The position numbers and the translations under genes were made by a program. DNA of 64,000 nt from Tubiluchus corallicola (taxonomy: Eukaryota > Animalia > Priapulida), in assembly GCA_030141605.1 (NCBI GenBank), contig JAQGDQ010000124.1:62001-126000 (forward strand). Direction: 5' to 3'. Below, piece by piece: positions 27,601 through 41,400 of the stretch (position 1 is the stretch's first letter; every line of letters begins with the position of its first letter). The notes beneath the pieces were generated by a model. It saw only the letters and a list, made by a program, of their open reading frames with translations. It did not search any database and had not been told where the DNA came from.

Positions 27601-29453
27601 TTTATGCAAAAAACATTAAAACTGGAATCTGCTTAATTAAGTATAAGAAAATACGAGCATTTTATAAAATTCTTAAATAGTGAGAAACTGGACTAACTAA
27701 AAATATAATTTTAATTTTCCCAACAATGTACAAGCACCACAAATCTATTTAACAACTTCCAGCTAGTGAGACTGCATAACTTAAGAAGAGTGTAGTTGGA
27801 CTAATGTGGTGGTTAATTAAAATTACTACTATCTACAATAAAACAGCATTAACGCTCCACTTTCAATAGAAAAAAATCAGAATTCCCGTACTGGTAAATT
27901 AATAGCAATTCTCCACAAAAACATTGATGTAAGAAGGACTTGTTAACATGAGATTAAAAAAGCTCACGGTGCTCTTTCTGCCATTTCTGGTCGCTGTTTG
28001 TGAAAATTGCAAGCAATACTTTTTGGAAACTATGCCTCTGTCGAAAGCGTGATAATTACAGCCTTGGCATTAGCTTGTTATTGTAGTGTTAGATGAAAAA
28101 GGAAGCACAGATACTGCGTGCACGACATTTTGCAGGGGACAGAACAATGTGGCACATATCATCATTTAGTGAAAGACTAATAAAATTAAATTAAGAATGA
28201 TATTAGTATTCAACAGAAGCAAGTATTGACATAATACTGAAATATGCTCACTTCTGTTCAAGTCATTACAAATCAGGCCCCATGTACGTAGTGTAATCTT
28301 AACAAGCATTTGCTAAGGTCCTTCGAAAATTCTCTATTTTGCCAAGAAAAGCTTAAATAAATTATTTTCTTAAAAATCATGCAACTTTTAACTACAGTTA
28401 AGTGAGCCAGGTTTAAGAAGTGACCAAACTCACATTCAGTCAATCAGGTAATATTTTCACCTTGTATTTCCAAATTATTGCGAGTCACACCAACTAACGG
28501 CTGGCAACAGTTATCTACTGCATCGTGTTTGTGAAATTTATGCTAATACATCGGTAGATTTAAATGGCATTCCATTTGCATCAAGAAATCGATTATAATT
28601 GCATAAAAAGTAATGGTAAAAAAATATTATATTACACGCAACATATGTTGACAATTTCATACTACATTTACTGTATGTAATAAATTGGCAAAAACGTCCA
28701 ATAGCATAAATAAGTAATGAAAAACGCACTCCAATATGATCTCACTTATCTAGCACCTCATTTACCTGTGAAAGCCAGGCACTGCAGGATTTTTTAAATG
28801 CCACCTTTCAAGGCTTTTAAATCAGTGACCCTTTAACCATGCAAATATTAAGTGACAAGAGCTGGCACATGCAGGCTTGTAACTCGATACAGTCAGCTGT
28901 CATGCACTGAGCGATCCTGACTCATAATGAAATGATCTGATGTTGGTTGCGATTGCTAATACAGTCTCATATAAATCTAATTCAAAATAATGGGAAATAC
29001 CAATGCTGCATGGCACATTCTTTCCTGTTACACTGCAGTCTAGCCTTACAGAATGACAATAGAGCAACGTACAATAAATAGACAAGTTAAAAAATGATCT
29101 CGTTCACTCTGTAATACTAATGGGTAAAATCATTATAAATATGATGAGACAATATGAACTTTGTACTTGACAATACAAATTGAGTACTTGTATTTCATGC
29201 TAGTTAACGTATTTCAGTCATCCGAATATTTCACTTGTCTGACAAAGGCTTGGTCTAAAGACAACTGGATCAGTGAGAACATACTGTGTTCACATCGGAA
29301 AATAATTACTTCCGATGCCTACAATTAAGTACCTGAATTTTGTGGCTTTTAACAAATTAGAGTCAGCCGGACAAGGTTCAGTCTGAAGACATGCAGATAA
29401 GTGAGGACACACTGTATTCTCATTGGAAAATTACAGAAGAGCGAAACGGGCAA

Positions 29454-32400
29454 CTAGTAAGCATCAAGTGCTGTTACATTGAAAAACTCGAACTGCCATT
29501 TCTGTGTAGGTGATTGTTTATCACACTCGCTCATGAACACTTCATGCATTTCAGGATTTGAGTCCAGGCAGTGCTTTGTGACACTGTGGAACAGCTGCAT
29601 GCTATGCTGAAATTGATGAAATCAATATGAAACATATAAAGTGAAGCTCATTAAATTAGTGACTGGGAAAGCAAAGCTTCACAACACAGTAAACACAAAG
29701 ACCCACAGGTAGACTGGCTTCTTTATTTAACCTAATGTTTCAGCCTCTCAACCAATGTCATAATTATAGGTAACCACCTACATGTGTATTTAAGCCAAAC
29801 ACAGTAACTATAATTATACTTCAAGACCAGAAACACATTATCAAGATTACACATGATTATATCACTGGCACATTAGGTCAAATAAAGATGTCTTGTTATT
29901 TATAGGTGCTTGTATTTTCTTTTTCAATGAAGCACATCATGCATATAATTAAATTTAAGTCGACTTGATTTTATCAAATTTGAGGGAAAATGACTTGTGA
30001 ATTGATTTCAGACGAGAGCTAAGCCAGTCTTACCCAATCTTGTTTAAAAACCTTTTAAATTTGTTAACGATCTATTTTTAAAGAATAAATAAATTCAGTA
30101 TTACACGAGCAAACTGTACAAATTACCCCACTTCTTTTCTGGTAACATAACACTTTCAGACAACTAATATAAGGCAAAATGATATAACTTTAGGCAAAAA
30201 CGTTGCATTTGAAATTCATGGAAGCATTTGTCTCTTAAATTTAGTGACACGATTACACTTACGTATAAGTATTTCCACTGTTGATTTCCACGCATTCCGT
30301 GACAGTGGTAGAGTATTACAGGTGCACGTTCTCCACCGCTTGACACATCAAAACAAACTGTGCGCTTGAATGGCTTCAGATCTTTTTGCCAACCCAAAAT
30401 GAAATGCTAAAAACACAAGCAGATCACCTGTTACACAGTAAAATAGCTCAGCCTTTGGGATTACAATTTCCGTTGTAACGTTTTGTTAAATTAATGATAC
30501 GAATAGTAGATTGTCTCAGTGATAATAAATATATACCAGTGATTTTGTACATATGTAGTACATTTCATACAAAGATAACACAATAAGAAAACACTGATGG
30601 AACAGAGTTACTAGAAAAGTATACAAAAATATGGAAAAGATAACGGAAATACAAAATGCAATATAGTTTTGCTTATATAAATTTGTTTCAGTTTACTTAC
30701 AAGACAAATGAATGAGGCAACTATAAATGGAGGGCACTGCAAAAAATTTGATTCTACGAAAAATGTAACCAGGATTGTTTTTAAACTATATGTACAATAA
30801 ATAATTAGTACATGTTGAACAACACAACACAAAAGCTGTAAAGTATTGTTGCCTAAGGAAAATTATTGACATGAACACATGTATCTTGTTTAGATGAACT
30901 TTCCTATTTTCATTCGCCATACTGATTCTGGCTGTTTACCTCATTGAGGGATATACGCACATCCAAACGTGGTTAAGAAGCCTCTGTGAGTTCAGTAGCT
31001 CAGTTCAAAAGCGAGCAAAGTCTCGGTCTTACCACAAACATCATGATTACATAGGTCTGCCATTGAAGCTGGATTTCGAGTTATAGTGCGTCAAAAGTTT
31101 TAAAGAAAATTAAAAGGCAGGAAGATGAGACATAAAAGCTTTTTGCTTGCCATCAATCTTTAGACCCCCTGGGAAAGAGTTAAAATGCAATTTACACAAT
31201 TTTTGTGATTCCCAGGTGACCTCATTGGGAAAAAGTCAAAACATATTTAAATAACTTTAATTCCCAAGTTGTTGCCTGCATAGAACAAAATTAAGTGCTG
31301 CTGAAAATTTTGTGAAGTAAGAAGCGAAAAGCGATTTTCTAAGACGAAACTTCCTGTCGGCACATGCATAATTAAATACTTTTAGTTACAACTCGTTCAT
31401 GCAACTAAAAGCTGTATTGTTTTATAATCACATTTTTTAGTTGTATTTTTATTAGTTTTTTGCATACTTTGCATGTGTTTTACTCTACAGCATCTAAGCA
31501 CCTACAAGATGAGATTTTACACTTTAAAGACTAAAAAATTTAAACTTAACTGAAATAAGTGTGCACACTTAATTATTTACCTGTTCTCCACCTTGACCAG
31601 GTGAATCCTTAATACAAGAAGCCAATCCAAATCGTTCATTTGCTCCTTTAAATTGGGTATCAATACAGAGATTGCTTACAGGATTCCTTAGCTGGAATAA
31701 TGGAAATTATTAATAAGTAATAATAATTGAATAAATATTAATAATAATAATTTCTTAATTATTAACTATAATAATCTTCATTCCTTATTTCACTGCAATA
31801 TTCAATAGCATTCCTTGTGTAATCAAAACACCACTAGAATTTGATACTATAAAAATGAAAACTTTACAGTTTTTCAGGAATGTATGTTAGTAGTATGTTC
31901 AACTCGTCTTGAATCACTTTGTTACACAATTTCCTGTGTTCAGGGTTGATGCAGAGGCTAAGAATAGTAGTTACACCACTCTAGCTCACAAGTAAGCTTT
32001 AAATATATGCAGCTTATAATGCTCCGCTAATCTTGTCAACAGATGGCACCACGTTATGCATATTGTATTAATATTGCCGCTATTGGCAGCACTGGTGTTG
32101 CCCTCTACCAAATTTGTTATCGAACTAACAGAAGCAAAATATGTATAAGGTAATGTAGCATTAGTAGTATTATATAACACATATACACACATATATATAC
32201 ATATATACATATAAATAATTCTATAAAAATAATATAAATATATAAAATGTATATATAAATAAACTTTAATTCATTAACCTTTGAAGTGAAAATTGAGGAC
32301 TCTAACTTGTGTACACTTATCTGACTGTTTTGTGATTTGTCTATGGTGAAATTTAACACACCTCTTTACACCGCCAAACTCGCTAGAATACCAACTTCTT

Positions 32401-35400
32401 CCCAGTACAAGTGGGTGGTATAACCAGGTTTGACTGTTAACAACACTGGCGTTTGTAAAAATGTTATGAACTAACAGAAGCTAATGCACTGTAACTTGAA
32501 AATTACAATTATGAAAAATTTATCTTCACACTATATTTTAAATAAATAACAAAACAGGCTAAACAAAAGCACTGACTTACTTCCCCAGTGGCAAAGTCTG
32601 GAGGTTCCTTAGGAGGGTATTTCTTTGGCTGATCGAAGGCTATTTCCTCCATGAACCACTTGAAGGATTTGCACTTTAGTTTTTCTCTCAGGTTCTTCTG
32701 TTCGGTTATGTTTCCGGGATCAAGGTCGCGATAATGAGGGCGCCGCATGTATAAATAGTCCTTGTACTCGTCCATCCAGACTTCCGCAACTCGTTTATAA
32801 TTCTAAATAGTTGCAGAAAACATTGACAATTAAAAGCATTTGCTGGCAATCTTTTCTGATTACGGTTTCAGTGTTTACAGGTTGTCCGAAATTAATATAA
32901 TTAGTAGCAACTACCAATTTTAGTTCAATTTTGAGACATTTATACAGGTCACAAAATTTCCAATTTATTTAGTTACTGCAACTGTAATTGAAAAACTTTT
33001 CCATTGTAATTGAGTACACTCAAATGTAAACAAGCACAAATCTCAATCAAAATGGTACATTTATAAATTTTATCAACAGAAAAAATTTTGCAATCCAAAT
33101 ATATGCTTCAGTAACATTTAACAACAAAAGTGCTTACCTGCTCATAAAAAATTACAATCAGCTGATAAAATCAACTTATAAGCAAAAGGGTTAATTTTCT
33201 ACAATTATGTGCAACCATTAGTAGAACAACACCAAGAAGGAACAAAGAACAAGCTTACTCTGCCTACAAAGTCCCCAATGCCTGGGTTAGGAAAAGGTGC
33301 AAACTTGCGATAGATGTGCCCGACTCGAGAGCAAGGTGCATCAACCATCTCACCCCTACACTGCCAGATCTATAGAAATGCAAGCAGAAGTTTTTAGTTA
33401 AAAAACAAAAGCTTGAAAAGCTTGACGCTACGTCACCATGCTCTCGAAGAGGCCACTTGGTGAATAGGATGTTACCAAAATGCAGCTCCAAATTAGCAGG
33501 TTATTTGTATGAAAAGTGGTGGCTAAAGTTGTAAGATCTCAGCCAGTTTAACTGATCTGAATCTCTCTGCCATATTAATTCTGACACCGATGAAGCTTTT
33601 TGCCAAGTTTTAGATCTTCAACTGATTAGAAAGTTACTTGTAACTACTTGCTCTAACTTTATCTGCACAATCTATGTACTGTACGGAGCAAGAGTAGGTC
33701 AAATCTCTTTACTGATTTACTTTTGAAGCAACTAAAATCACATTATGGACCCTATTTGATATGTGTTACCCCATTTTTTCAAATGTATCAAGTAAGACTT
33801 GAAGAAATATAAAGTAAGCATTAATGTATTTTTGAAAAAGAGGAGTAAGAAGTACAAAGCTAGCCTTATTAGAACAGCAACAGAACCAAATCGAACTTGC
33901 AACTGGAATTTTTCTTCGACCTTCAATTTTTCAATGTTTTATGCAACATGTCCACTCATTTTTTCCCTTATTTAGTCGCAGTGGCTTTCGTTGAAAGGCG
34001 ACTACTTAAAAACTAATTGTCTACCTGCTATGTCATACTATCTATTTAAATCTTGCTTCTAACTCTTGCTACCTTTCAAGTGGCAGCTACATTTAGTAGA
34101 AAAATATCTTAACAACTACGGCTTACAATTATATAACGCATAGTGCACAAGACACTGTTTACAGTAGTATCACAGTTAGTTTAGGTTAGAGAGATCGAAA
34201 AATTCCTGCTGAAAGACTAAAAGTGAGATAAGATTTACTTCTAAAAAAGACATTGTGATACTGCTGTTACGTTGTTAATGCTACAACTAATAGTGATGAA
34301 TGATAAGTATACAGAAGATTAGTAAGACAGTTAAAAGGTGGTGTGCATTGTTAGGTATTTAGGATAGATTTGGGCAAGGCACTTACTCTAGTAATGAAAT
34401 CTCCAAGTTCAGGAGGATTAGGTATAGGAGAAAATAAGCGATAAACATGGCCAATTCGAGAGCATGGTGCATCAATCAATGCACCATGACACATCCAAAT
34501 CTACGAACATACAAATATCTCATTAGCGATAACGAGTTCTGAGAAAAATAATAATTGTTTCTCGGGAATTTTTAACACAGCATGACACTAAAATGTTTTA
34601 AGCCATTTATCATTATAATTACTATACTAGTGTTTTTATGAAGTCAGAATTTAATTAAACTAAAAACTCAACTGTACAAAAAGTTGAGAGTACATTGATT
34701 TCTGTGTGGATTTTGATATGACACACCCATGCTCTCCAGCGGGCCAGAAGAAAAAAGTACAGAGAGAGAGAAAGTAAAGAGTTAAAGGAAGAAGTGAAAG
34801 TGAAGCTGAAGCAACAGTTCCATTTCAAAAACGAAAACTGTTGATAAATTAGTGTAGAGGTGATTCCATTGTAATGGTTCATACTGAATTTAGGACTAAT
34901 ACAAAGCAAGTGAAGTGAGTAACAGATGTTCCTCGTTCTTTTGTCATTTCTTAGCTGACTGACACTAAGCTATTGTCCCAGAATCCAAGGCAACAAATCT
35001 ACATTTGATTCTTAATATAAGTGCTATGTAAAACTTGAAGAATGGTGTGGTTGGTTTGTGTATGCTGACTGAGAGAGTGGCCAGCCACACTTACTCGACC
35101 AATAAAATCTCCAATAGCAGGAGGGGCTCTAATGGGAGAATGACGGTATATGTGGCCAATTCGAGAGCAAGGTGCGTCAATCATTTTACCATGGCACATC
35201 CAAACCTATGAACACAATAACGTAAGTTTTCACAAGAACCATGCAAGATGTGCAAAAGCTGTACATAGATGCTACAACTACCGATGCTACTACTGATAAA
35301 TGGTTGACCAGAAAAATCCCTCTAACTAAATTCATAGCCCTTTATTATGGTAAAGGCATTTGTAAACGAGCCCTCCACTGTTTCTCTAGGAATGACAGGT

Positions 35401-38400
35401 AAAAACCACTAAAATTGGCAGTGTTTCGCTCACTGCTAGAACACCAACTAGAAACACCATCTTAGTGGCACTTGGGTTGCAAATGTATAACTTTTTGAAA
35501 GGAGAAACCAACTCACACGGTGATGTGGGTCTCTTTTACGATCTCCTTTACTATTTACAAACACCTTTACCAAGATGAAGGGTTACAACTTAATTTGGGG
35601 GAATATTTCTTCTGGACGACCCTGTAGTTTATCAGAAACAAGTGACAAGTGTTAGATCAGAATACCCCACCAGAGGGAGACAGCATTGCGCTGTTAACTC
35701 CACTCACTTTCCACAGAAAGTTTCCATGCTCCCGAGAGGAAGCAAATGGATTAAATGATCTATAAACATGACCAATGCGCGAACACGGAGCATCCATTAT
35801 ATAACCATGACATTGCCAAATCTAAAGAAGTATATAGCAAAAATTCGACAGCTTATAATCATTTGCATTTAATCACATAGAGTTTCGATTTTAAAAACTC
35901 TTAAACACGTAAATACAGTCAGGTACATTGTTCAACAAAGTAAAACATTTAGCAATTTCTTGCTAAACTGAAGGCTTTTACTATCATTATTGACTAGAAG
36001 AATGATACGTTTAATTATTTAACTTATTCTCAAAATTATTTGTTGACAAAGGAATAAGCCTGCAATTATGAAATTATCCAAACCTGATTATTGTGCATCT
36101 ATTCTATCAAGCTATAATTATTACACTGAAAGATAAATATCTATTAATATACAGTCTGTAAATCCTTACATTTATTTAAATCAGTCAATTATTTATATCA
36201 TATCTTCTGATAGCAACAACACCATCAGAAATAAACATCATATTACCAAGTTTGAAATACAATAAAATTGCAAGTTTTCTGTTTAAAAATTTCGAAAGAT
36301 CTCCCAAAACATGTTACTTTGCCAGAAGATGCAAAATGTAATAATAGTAACAGTACATTCTGAAATATCTGATTATTGTACAATTATGCAAAATGACATA
36401 TTTACTAGATGCGAAACCAGCATTTACCAGTTCACAAACGCAAGTGAATAAATAAGTCAATGAAATTATGTGCACATTTTACCTTGAAAGATAATTCGTA
36501 CTGCTCTCCACCCCAAACATCCAAACCAGGGTCATAGCCACCAAGTTCCCAGAAAAAGGACCTGTCTATGGCAAATAATCCTCCAGCCATTACAGGACTC
36601 CTACAAGCAGACAATATGATGTAAATTTTAATTTGAGCTGTTAATAAATTAAATTAAAGTATGAACCCGACTTTCTGCCAAGAACACAAACTAGTCAGAA
36701 CCTCCACTTGCTTAAACACAACAAGTATGATGATGTTGCTTATTTATATATACCTCCATAGGTGTTCGCACAACCACATGAAGCATCTAATTGAACCTCT
36801 ACTAAACCAGATAAAGCATGATAATTGCTTATGTTTGCATAACAGCGGATTTTATGTAGCATTCAAAGGTAAGTATTGACTGAAACTTTGGAATATTACA
36901 CACAACGTTTTAATAATCAGGTGTAAATATTTCAAATGCATCTAATTACATGTATGTGCTAGCATGCACACATTTTCATGCAATAACTTACTTGAAAGGC
37001 TGCGGCATGTTTACTAAATCTTCTTGTAACAACGGGAGTCGTTTGTAGTAGAATTCCCAGTCAAAAGACCCCCTAGCACCCTCGTCCTGAGCTCGATATG
37101 CAAATGTTTCATAGTCAATCACATCAATAAATGGACAGACAGCTGTACGTCGGTTTACAGCTATAGGATCTGAAAGAAAATTTGTACAGAAACTGCAAAG
37201 TAGCATTCAGATCTGGAAAAAAACTGTGAAAAGTCATTGTACAACAAAAAATACGGAAATTATTAATAGCAGCAAACAGAAAAATAAAAGTTGTAAATGT
37301 ACTGCAGGGTTAATATATTGCAATTAATTATTGGAAATCAAGCTTGATTGTCGCTTTACTTCATACCTTGCACATACCTTAATCTATCGAATAATCTTAT
37401 TGTCCATACAGATAATGTACGTCACAAACAATATGCTATGTAACACAGAATAGATAGTTACTGAACTTCATAATTTTGATTTTGGTCAACTGACAAAGAC
37501 TTTATGAAGAGGCTTATAATCATAGCCGCAAAATAAGCCGGGACACACCGATCCTTGTTTTTGATGAAAGCCGAAGATAAACAATTTTTCCCAGTTGGTA
37601 TGAATGTACCAAGTTTGATGGAAATGGGATCAGTGGTTTCAGATGCACAATGTAAAGAATTTGTATAAACAAATCTCCTCACTTTTTGGGTACAATGAGG
37701 AGAAATTGGAGATAAAAAGTAGAAATGACTAAATATAATATTGAAAATTATGCAAAGCATAACAAGTTTATTGTACCGATAACAAACTATGCTATAAAAA
37801 TGTATGCAAAGCATTCTTAGTTTTTGCAAAAAGTACTTTTAGACACAGAAAGGTACTTTGTATAAAAGTGGAAATCTTTCATGCCAGGCAAGTCAGACAA
37901 AAGATGTTTTTCTTTCATTCGTTTTACCATTAATATATTGCACAACACAAGTACAAATTAAACGCAAGAAAGCGAAAAACGAGGTTATTTAATATAACTA
38001 TTAGCACATTACACTTAGTGCATTATTGATTACATCATAATAGATGACTTTTTTTATTTACCTAATAATGGAGGTAACCAGTTGATATTAGCTTCACAAT
38101 GTGAATCTAGGAAGATCAATACATCACCAGTAGCTGCCTTTGCTCCTAACAGACGTGCTCGTATTAGACCCTCTCTTTTCTTTGCTCGCACCACTCTAGC
38201 CTTTGGAATGTTTTCTTTTAAATAGTTGTCTAAGAAGTCTTTTAAAAATTCTAAATAAATACAAAAATAATTACAGATAGTTAAGTAATAAGAATTTGGG
38301 TTCATCGCCTTCACCACGATCGACTCAATAAATCTCATGAATATATGAATTAAAGAATAAAGCTTTCTGGTTAAGTTAATTTACATTCACAAGTCATATA

Positions 38401-41400
38401 AAAATGGTGACTATACACTATACATTAAGCAAAATCTATTTCGAAACAATAAGACCTTCATAAACCAAAATACCACTCAGTAGAGCTCAGACCTCCAGCA
38501 AGGCCTGCAAAGTACAATTCACTACTACACAGTTGCTTAAGTTAAAATGCCACAAATTGTTCTGACCAATAACAATGAAAACATAACTCAATGGCATAGG
38601 TAACCATAGAACCTTTGAAACATTAATTGACGTTTAGACAGGTATCATCTCCATTGTCTACCGTAGTTTTAACTTTCTTAGCATTAGTGCTGCATTTGGT
38701 CTTCCGGCAGTCTTAAGGCACATTCAGACTAGTGAGTTTTGTCACCAAGTTAATTTGCCAAGTAACTCACAAGCATGTTGAGACTAGAAAGCAAGACTTG
38801 CTGTGAGTTACTGCGAGTCACTCTCTATTCACTGCGAGAAGTGTCGAAAGTAACTCACAGAGGCGCTCACACTAGACAGTAACTTGCAGGAAATTAACTC
38901 GCAGCAACTGTCGGAGAGTTTGGAATAAATTATCGGCAGGAACTTGCAAAGCAGTTCACAATGCAAGTTTGCTGTCAGAGAGAAAACTCGTGACAGAACA
39001 CTTGCTAGTCTGAATGCACCTATTAGGAAAGGTGAGTTAACCCCAGCTTGAACCCTTGCATCCGTTTGGGAAGTAGGGTAGGAGATTAGCAGCGGAAACC
39101 TGAAACTGCCCAGGTGAATTTCACCCTGATGACCACCACATTTATGCATTTTTCTATATTTAACATTTTATTTGATACAAAACCCAAGATATGTGAAACA
39201 ACAGTAAACAATTACAAATACCAATTACTCTGTATCAACGCATTTAACTGTAACCAATCGTAAACAGTGACTACATGGCTATTTTAGTTTAGTTTATTCA
39301 ATTCAATCATCCCAATAATGTTTCAAAGGTAACCAACCATTTTATGTGTTGTTTTTACTGCGACTATCATTTCACGTTGTAGCCTGTGCACCTATTTGTA
39401 TTTGAAATGAAAACTAAGCACAGGAAAACTGGCGCACACAAAAATACTTCACTCCAATGCATGAAACCCCATAATATTTATTGTACAGCATCATACGTTC
39501 CTAACCTTTATTGCTAAAATCATCTACTAAGATTATCTCTTTTATAAGGTGTGGTGGAGATCTGTTAATAACACTCCATACAGTACGTAGGAGGGTTGAA
39601 ATATGTTCGTTATGGAATGGTACAACTATACTAGCATCAGGTAGTTTCTCTAGGTACTTCATTGTCTTGCAGCTAAAAGAAAATCAAACAAAAACGTTCA
39701 TACATCATTTTTCAGTTGCAACTGCTATCAGGTTAGTAACTACTTATATGGATGAGCTGTACCAATTCACTGATCAAGCCAATGCTCAGGATTATAATTA
39801 GTGCAATGTTCAAATTAACATTTTTTACTTCTTAAAAATTTGCCCTTAACTCGGTATCCACTTATACAAAACAAGAGATATTTAGCTAAATATGAAAGTG
39901 TTAGAATTTTAAACAAATTTTAGCAAAAAGCCATCTTAACATATGGGCATGCTTTGCCCTGAGGGACGCATAAGCATAGTGGCCCCATAGTAATCCATGT
40001 ATGCTGTGGCTTGCTGTCAATAAATAAATACCATGCTATACTAAGCTATAAATATTTGTTATTATGTTACAAGTGGACATTTGCATTAGTCAAACATTTG
40101 CTGTACAGCACGTTTTTTAATGTTTAAACACTGATTTTGTTGGAAGCACCAACATTATGTTTATTTTATTGACCATTTACATTTTTATTCTTGTGAGTGG
40201 TTGTGTAGTTAGGAGCCCCAGTACACTGTTCTGCCCGGGGGCAATAATAGTGTTAAGGCGGTCCAGAAAATCGCAATTGAACAACTTTCATCACAATTGA
40301 TTTTAGACCATATGTAATACGGCATGTCAAACAAATGTACAGGATTCCAGTATACATTTTAAAAGTCAACAGTATCTTCCTTTTGCATATGACAGTTGTA
40401 CAGTCAGATGTCAATGTGTATTCACCATTAACATCTGAGGTGATATTAAATTTCGTGACAAAATACGGTGCCAACATAATTCTGAACAGCATAGATGCCG
40501 AACTTTAATCTGATAACCTATATCTATTTAATTATAGGAAATTAAAAAAGCCTCTAAGTGTATGTATTGCATACAGATGTAGCTAGCATTTAATAAACTT
40601 CACAAAAATCTTTATAAACTTGAAATTAAGAGTTGCAAACACTAAGATTAAAACGGTCTGGTATAATTTTTATACAAAGTTCATGTATATGGTACACATA
40701 GCAAATGCACAATATCCGTACCTGTACAGAAATTAAATAACATGCTAACAAAGTCAATATGTAGATAATATAAGAAAGTTAGATAATAAAATTTACATTA
40801 CAAAGGCTTACCCCGTATGCCGTATGTCAGCTATAGACCGGTTCAATGGTATTTTGTCACTGGCAAGAGCATTAAATCCATTAACTTTATACAATTCCTG
40901 CTTCTCAGACTCGTCTGACGGTGATAAAACCAAAGCAACACCATGTTCCCCGGGTCCTGGGATAAAACACAAATGAACACAAACAAACTGATTTTAAAAT
41001 CATTCAAACATTTATTTTTAAAATTTACAAAAAATGCTCAGTTTTTTAAAGGAGAAGAAAAGAGAACTTTAAAGTACATCCCAAAATCCCAAAAACTATC
41101 CAAACAAAGTTATATTACATGGAAAGCTTCATTTCAGCTGACAAAATCCATGAAGGACAAAAGCTCTTGTGAAAAAAAAATTGAGACTTTTGGGCGCTTT
41201 GTCTTCTTTACAATTATTTTACTTGGCATAATGATTACCTGTTTGAAAGACTTATATAATTGGAAAACAAAAATTCTTTAAAATTTAAAATATTCGCACA
41301 ACCTAGTAAAACAGCACAACATTACCATCCCAGTGTGCACCACTGTTTCACCAAAAAACACATTGTTGTCCTTATCGACTATATAAAGTAATTAAAACTT

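Follow-up and report, generated by a model that had tools for sequence, protein, structure and literature searches.

Tandem exon-8 copies interleaved with candidate antisense blockers in a GALNT10-type gene of the priapulid Tubiluchus corallicola

The window, a stretch of 64,000 nucleotides of Tubiluchus corallicola DNA, carries on its minus strand a GALNT10-type polypeptide GalNAc-transferase gene in which exon 8 occurs in four homologous tandem copies (8a, 8b, 8c, and 8d) between exon 7 and exon 9 (Table 1). The gene product combines a GT-A domain with a ricin lectin domain (Pfam), and human GalNAc-T10 is the top solved-structure match of the orthologue P0122 (E 1e-195; runner-up 2e-138) and likewise the first match of exon 8d alone; best structure match and domain composition both place the gene in the GALNT10 subfamily. 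The nearest whole protein is that of Priapulus caudatus, with a summed tblastn score of 1147 versus 1009 for the best non-Priapulus protein. Exon 9 taken by itself (88%) points to a spider, an origin that was rejected on this score and on the match of the 8a and 8c loops to Priapulus. The four copies measure 114, 111, 114, and 111 nt, all splice sites are GT-AG, and the inter-exon introns span 502, 594, and 1017 nt; the whole cluster is only 2.6 kb long. These dimensions agree with the first-pass annotation, which had set aside frame and U12 sites and called short-intron hindrance unlikely. With exons of 3n length, GT-AG sites, and introns of 502–1017 nt, explanations based on reading frame, U12 sites, or steric hindrance across a short intron are inapplicable. 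Distal branch points were considered and rejected, the preceding AG lying only 18–53 nt before each acceptor.

Table 1 Features of the exon-8 cluster, with exon-8 cores of other loci (positions in the window unless a locus is named)
Feature	Position	Strand	Remarks
Exon 7, constitutive	36483..36602	-	tblastn with Priapulus protein; run X6 joints start at 36483; 5' end approximate
Exon 8a, 114 nt	35708..35821	-	core codons unlike 8b/8c/8d; not an element target
E_a, weak third antisense copy within exon 8a (S-R-E-H-G codons)	35720..35745	-	motif 35724-35733
Exon 8b, 111 nt	35095..35205	-	target core 35152-35178
E_c, antisense element in the 8b–8c intron	34714..34747	-	-41.0/-39.0/-44.6 kcal/mol with 8b/8c/8d
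Exon 8c, 114 nt	34387..34500	-	target core 34447-34473; run X6 has its joint with exon 7
E_d, antisense element in the 8c–8d intron	33422..33457	-	-44.6/-46.8/-39.0 kcal/mol with 8b/8c/8d
Exon 8d, 111 nt	33259..33369	-	target core 33316-33342; joined to exon 7 in run X6
Exon 9, constitutive	32581..32802	-	sequence and tblastn matches
Tandem exon-8 cores in other loci	L003 1664, 2354, 3746; L015 423, 1018; L038 2513, about 3012

Residues 1–31 of the exon align to residues 342–372 of GalNAc-T2, in which His359 binds the metal and Arg362–Ser373 form a flexible loop, as described in PMC4432651. Exon His18 therefore corresponds to His359 and the variable half of the exon to the flexible loop, and swapping one exon-8 copy for another would exchange the His359 region and the Arg362–Ser373 loop of the enzyme. 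Exon 8d is the form common to most GALNT10 proteins. The four named P. caudatus isoforms comprise one 8c-type, one 8a-type, one 8d-type, and one without exon 8. Exon 8a is identical to isoform X2 at 31 of 38 residues, and the best match of 8c is isoform X1. Exons 8a, 8c, and 8d thus predate the split from P. caudatus; an 8b counterpart is absent from all four named isoforms, and 8b may have arisen later, as a duplicate of 8c. The D-A-P of the window is replaced by D-I-P or D-T-P in P. caudatus, in which one scaffold carries XP_014664811-815. Isoform X4 (P0121), which skips every exon-8 copy, would be without the metal-binding His. Contigs of run X6, which we take to be RNA by guess, contain joints of exon 7 to 8c and of exon 7 to 8d; the joints listed include none to 8a or 8b or between exon-8 copies, bearing in mind that contigs cannot show absence. 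Alternative use of the copies is seen both in these joints and in the P. caudatus models, three of which carry one exon 8 and the fourth none. That the copies strictly exclude one another is inferred from two contigs together with these four models.

Neither exon 8c nor the 8a region of P0123 found a match in protein searches, and none of the 72 loci recovered in a metagenome scan has an 8a-, 8b-, or 8c-type loop, so the scan yielded no intron orthologous to those of the cluster. Tandem exon-8 copies are present in GALNT10 loci of other animals (L003, L015, L038, L067, and L072), where the standard exon is often preceded by a copy with an F-N-P-type loop, the type of 8a. Duplication of exon 8 is recurrent or ancient.

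Two intronic elements, E_c and E_d, are antisense to the coding cores of 8b, 8c, and 8d and alternate with the exons in the order b–E_c–c–E_d–d. Where the first-pass annotation had located a repeated motif, we found an identical 10-nt block, a 5-nt spacer, and an identical 5-nt block in both introns, 65–87 nt upstream of the 8d start in E_d and 227–246 nt upstream of the 8c start in E_c. The ungapped pairs it had counted for E_d (15+6 with 8c, 4+10+6 with 8b) were recovered, as were the weaker pairing of E_d with 8d and the contrast between GC-rich elements (56–59% GC) and AT-rich introns (35% GC). Our analysis adds to that annotation that E_c is longer, that 8a is no target, and that 8a itself contains a weaker third copy of the motif. 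The exon–intron duplexes are imperfect, 27–31 bp long, and their helices span exon nt 28–54, away from the splice sites. Each element fits the rival exons better than the exon directly downstream of it, and the best partner of E_c is 8d, an exon further downstream, of which specific bases are matched.

The pairing exceeds chance, as a comparison with shuffled controls, proposed in the first-pass annotation, makes clear. In five of the six pairs with 8b, 8c, and 8d, not one of 500 dinucleotide shuffles paired as strongly as the real sequence, and for E_d–8d 4/500 did so; the duplexes with 8a (−29.3 kcal/mol for E_d, −25.4 kcal/mol for E_c) are at chance level, with 80/500 and 203/500 shuffles reaching the observed energy. 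When 30-nt windows across 29400–40000 were scanned against the 27-nt cores, E_d and E_c took the first two ranks for 8b, 8c, and 8d, the next-best windows (−24.9, −23.9, and −25.6, respectively) trailing the elements by 8–18 kcal/mol. The six strongest pairings within 32560–36620 all join an element to an exon core, and the top intron–intron pairing reaches −26.8. 

An inverted repeat at the acceptor of exon 9 (32810–32836 with 33921–33947) lies outside the 45 strongest pairings and was rejected as a candidate.

Control sequences gave lower values. For 107 27-mers from nine constitutive exons, no pairing within 2.5 kb exceeded 0.60 of the perfect duplex (best z −5.8). For 76 cores from 72 further loci, 57 of these cores being distinct and some taken from transcripts, the ceiling was 0.57 (best z −5.3); the elements here attain 0.70–0.78, with z −6.6 to −7.1. 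A 10-letter motif, picked after seeing the data, occurs six times in 64 kb versus 0.12 expected, and all six copies fall inside the cluster on strictly alternating strands: three in the cores, two in the intronic elements, and one in 8a. The antisense elements are a real feature and, judged from sequence, likely functional.

A rival reading is neutral debris: remnants of a template switch or a short inverted duplication that multiplied when the exons did. We consider it highly improbable. Outside the element, the E_c and E_d flanks are unrelated (101/200 shuffles score equally well), so the shared part is the complementary segment alone, and the persistence of two or three copies of a 20–30 nt segment between unrelated flanks argues against debris. 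Synonymous recoding of the exons reached the E_d value in 0, 0, and 37 of 1000 cases for 8b, 8c, and 8d, and the E_c value in 2, 3, and 11 of 1000; for 8a, 469/1000 and 540/1000 recodings were as good as observed. The A, C, S, and R codons are identical in 8b, 8c, and 8d, and 8a differs at all four. Measured against an expectation from 483 codons of the gene, identical codons among 8b, 8c, and 8d number 17/25 in the core (9.9 expected) and 20/42 outside it (16.8 expected), and in pairs with 8a 5/26 in the core (10.3 expected) and 18/31 outside (13.5 expected), the pairs in both comparisons not being independent. The nine-letter C-S-R string is present in 3/57 distinct cores from other loci. 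Exons 8c and 8d are older than the P. caudatus split yet have these rare core codons in common, and the elements carry G opposite target positions that vary between C and U, both of which are hard to reconcile with debris. On its side are the partial self-complementarity of the exon 8 start and core (an 11-bp hairpin in 8c), which eases such matches, the lack of such elements in other animals' clusters, and a conservation signal in run X5 that is not significant: the E_d core is changed at 1/25 positions versus 12/72 in the flank (one-sided p 0.098; one contig, depth 3, with 14/20 differences listed and E_c not covered).

Runs X4, X5, and X6 contain at least five substitutions in the pairing arms (33431, 33452, 34735, 34447, and 34465), all compatible with pairing to 8c; the one at 33431 costs one pair with 8b. 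All five are transitions, a class of change that by chance leaves pairing intact in about half of cases. The changes are one-sided and in close relatives, and for most of them the run concerned did not show the partner site. They lend the pairing weak support.

Intronic sequences that pair with exons are also familiar from RNA editing, where such editing-complementary sequences (ECS) form exon–intron duplexes for ADAR. E_c and E_d might act in this way, for example in an Ile to Val recoding at exon codon 16, a reading that we regard as improbable. Imperfect duplexes of 27–31 bp would suit it, the A of Ile16 stands opposite C when E_c is paired with 8b or 8c, and in RNA sense run X6 differs from the window sequence by an A-to-G-type change at 34465, within the duplex. 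That change is synonymous, however, and X6 differs at many further sites in the manner of a relative; its T>C sites are 33283, seen in DNA runs too, and 34465, with none at Ile16, although minor variants are lost in contigs. Nor does editing by itself predict the preference for rival exons.

The first-pass annotation had proposed a docking/selector-like mechanism with the exon itself as docking site. Part of this stands, since the pairing is non-random, prefers rival exons, and has no separate docking site of similar strength beside it. The docking/selector picture as such fits less well than blocking, because the pairing is many-to-many, runs in both directions, and leaves 8a and 8b without an intronic selector. 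In its explicit form, E_c and E_d would pair with the upstream exon core, loop it out, and activate the next exon, with downstream pairing a by-product of homology. Both elements do precede an acceptor (E_d by 65–87 nt, that of 8d), E_d favours the upstream 8c and 8b over 8d, and upstream pairings form first in prefix folds; against this, the best partner of E_c is the downstream 8d, with 8d-specific bases matched, and nothing in the selector model silences downstream exons. We consider it unlikely. The docking/selector systems of Dscam1, 14-3-3, Mhc, and MRP1, as described in PMC6071210, resemble the cluster in their competing pairings among tandem exons. They have one intronic docking site and many intronic selectors, and pairing activates, whereas here one of the arms lies in the exon, both are apparently duplicated, and the predicted effect of pairing is repression. 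No single intronic docking site outside the variable exons was found, and elements stand only before 8c and 8d rather than beside every variable exon. The duplication model of Ivanov and Pervouchine, in which the arms of a stem-loop are duplicated, could yield such a layout (PMC6071210).

We propose that E_c and E_d are competing blockers that would pair with two of 8b, 8c, and 8d and leave the third free for splicing, a reading to which we give an even chance. Each core would take one element at a time; with two elements and three targets, any fold in which both elements are paired therefore frees one core. Pairing of E_c with 8b and E_d with 8c would free 8d, E_c–8b with E_d–8d would free 8c, and either E_c–8c with E_d–8d or the nested E_c–8d with E_d–8c would free 8b. 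Leftward pairing would loop out the donor of the bound exon, rightward pairing would enclose its acceptor, and in both cases the bound exon would presumably be repressed. The products would be enzymes differing in the flexible loop. Exon 8a would stand outside the blocker system and need other control; being unblocked, it means that the blocker model does not cover the whole cluster.

Long-range folding energies are rough, and within that limit the unconstrained minimum-energy fold and ensemble (2631 nt) contain the nested E_c–8d and 8c–E_d pairings with 8b free. Constrained folds gave −681.1 and −676.9 with 8b free, −677.8 and −670.9 with 8d free, and −669.5 with 8c free, the five two-blocker states spanning at most 11.6 kcal/mol. 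Prefix folds ending after E_c or 8c form b–E_c, and those ending after E_d form nested E_d–b and E_c–c. E_d and 8d can also form a local hairpin (−53.8 kcal/mol; 1/200 shuffles) that encloses the 8d acceptor and ties up its pyrimidine tract. Equilibrium favours the 8b-free state and the joints seen are those of 8c and 8d, so the model leans on kinetics. The b–E_c helix would form first during transcription, making E_d the main switch between 8c and 8d; we give even odds to transcription order and repression by pairing acting in this way. Separately, the H-G-A-L and D-A-P-C codons of exon 8c form an internal hairpin of ~11 bp (34462–34489, minus strand), with which E_c and E_d both compete for the 5' half of the core.

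The closest tested precedent is human ATE1 (PMC7797038). Its element R3, located between exons 7a and 7b, binds one of two similar elements, R1 or R4, and hinders one 3' splice site; loss of R3 led to double inclusion in experiments, and there the blocking logic works for two exons. In both systems an element lying between neighbouring exons is complementary to the homologous segment on either side of it (here E_c to those of 8b and 8c, and E_d to those of 8c and 8d). ATE1 has one blocker and two targets, whereas the cluster has two candidate blockers, three targets, and a predicted function. The ATE1 targets are intronic and overlap 3' splice sites; those here are active-site codons at exon nt 28–54 and do not, though the E_d–8d hairpin encloses the 8d acceptor.

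The exon as a pairing partner has precedent in the Ubs and Dbs balancers of Dscam1 exon 6, in which an intronic element pairs with exonic sequences (PMC12962786; PMC8791459). They share with E_c and E_d a competitive intron–exon pairing within a tandem exon cluster. Judged by the text descriptions, each balancer is one upstream element inside a docking-selector system and tunes ratios; the elements here alternate with the exons and target the same homologous core, and a separate docking-selector system in which they would be embedded was not found. Real pairing might still only bias isoform ratios, as balancers do, with exclusivity arising from proteins or exon-definition competition. We think this quite unlikely. 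It would accommodate the absence of 8a from the pairing system and the conservation of other intronic blocks in run X5 (33122–33170 and 34133–34193). Tandem copies in L003, L015, and L038 (two or three each) likewise have no comparable antisense element in their contigs (best z −4.6), so GALNT10 clusters may not need them. Two blockers for three targets in strict alternation suit exclusivity better, however, a separate docking system is not found among the strongest cluster pairings, and the motifs ACTAAY (1.36 vs 1.39 per kb) and TGCATG (1 match) are not enriched in the cluster.

Mutually exclusive exons are described for other GalNAc-transferases, namely human GALNT13, fly Pgant5, and C. elegans gly-5 and gly-6 (PMC9741552; PMC4165533). 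The C. elegans genes resemble the cluster in their tandem duplicated 3n exons of about 102–111 nt in the same enzyme family; all four belong to another subfamily, the cluster here being GALNT10. According to the same texts, introns of 34 nt (gly-5 9b/9c) and 11 nt (gly-6 8a/8b) allow steric exclusion there, which is inapplicable to introns of 502–1017 nt. In the open-access literature searched, neither this cluster nor RNA pairing in GALNT splicing nor n−1 or interleaved exonic blockers turned up. Splicing by competing structures is already known; what appears new is the predicted use of several interleaved blockers against coding cores. Docking/selector models, as discussed in PMC6071210, leave the silencing of exons downstream of the chosen one unexplained. 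If the blocker model is true, blockers that bind either neighbour would explain this silencing by counting, ATE1-type logic would extend from two exons to three with its target shifted into coding sequence, and exon choice would be RNA-guided in a priapulid. The switch would likely tune enzyme specificity, as predicted from the exchange of the His359 region and flexible loop.

A more general counting scheme ('musical chairs') would have n exons alternate with n−1 antisense copies of the coding core, so that a saturated fold frees exactly one exon without a docking site or repressor protein. Its third blocker would be the S-R-E-H-G codons of 8a, and pairing would have shaped one loop peptide as well as synonymous codon choice in the active site. 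We regard this scheme as rather unlikely. The third copy, E_a, pairs with −20 to −27 kcal/mol, and its recoding test gave 0.14, 0.11, and 0.02 for 8b, 8c, and 8d. Three-blocker folds lie 13–16 kcal/mol above the minimum, and E_a is self-paired in a local hairpin; for these three reasons its role as a working blocker is doubtful.

Several further features of the introns were observed. A pyrimidine tract of ~60 nt leads directly into E_c (34718–34810, minus strand), and the 3' half of E_c agrees at 11/12 letters, in sense orientation, with the beginning of exon 8c; the region is possibly a relic acceptor or a decayed fifth exon copy. The minus-strand block 33122–33170, covered by the run X5 contig with 7 differences in 49 positions, contains an AG, 24 in-frame letters (33161–33138), and a consensus donor, and could be a microexon or recursive site. 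The block 34133–34193 (minus strand) is alignable in run X5, where the adjoining 122 nt are not, and contains ACTAAC/CTAAC motifs at 34179–34189, which we take to be of STAR-protein type. In the 8a–8b intron, the segment 35310–35632 holds an inverted repeat with a 20-bp stem (35347–35368 with 35552–35573; −26.8 kcal/mol) that overlaps a stretch of high copy number in runs X1 and X4 and is probably a small mobile element.
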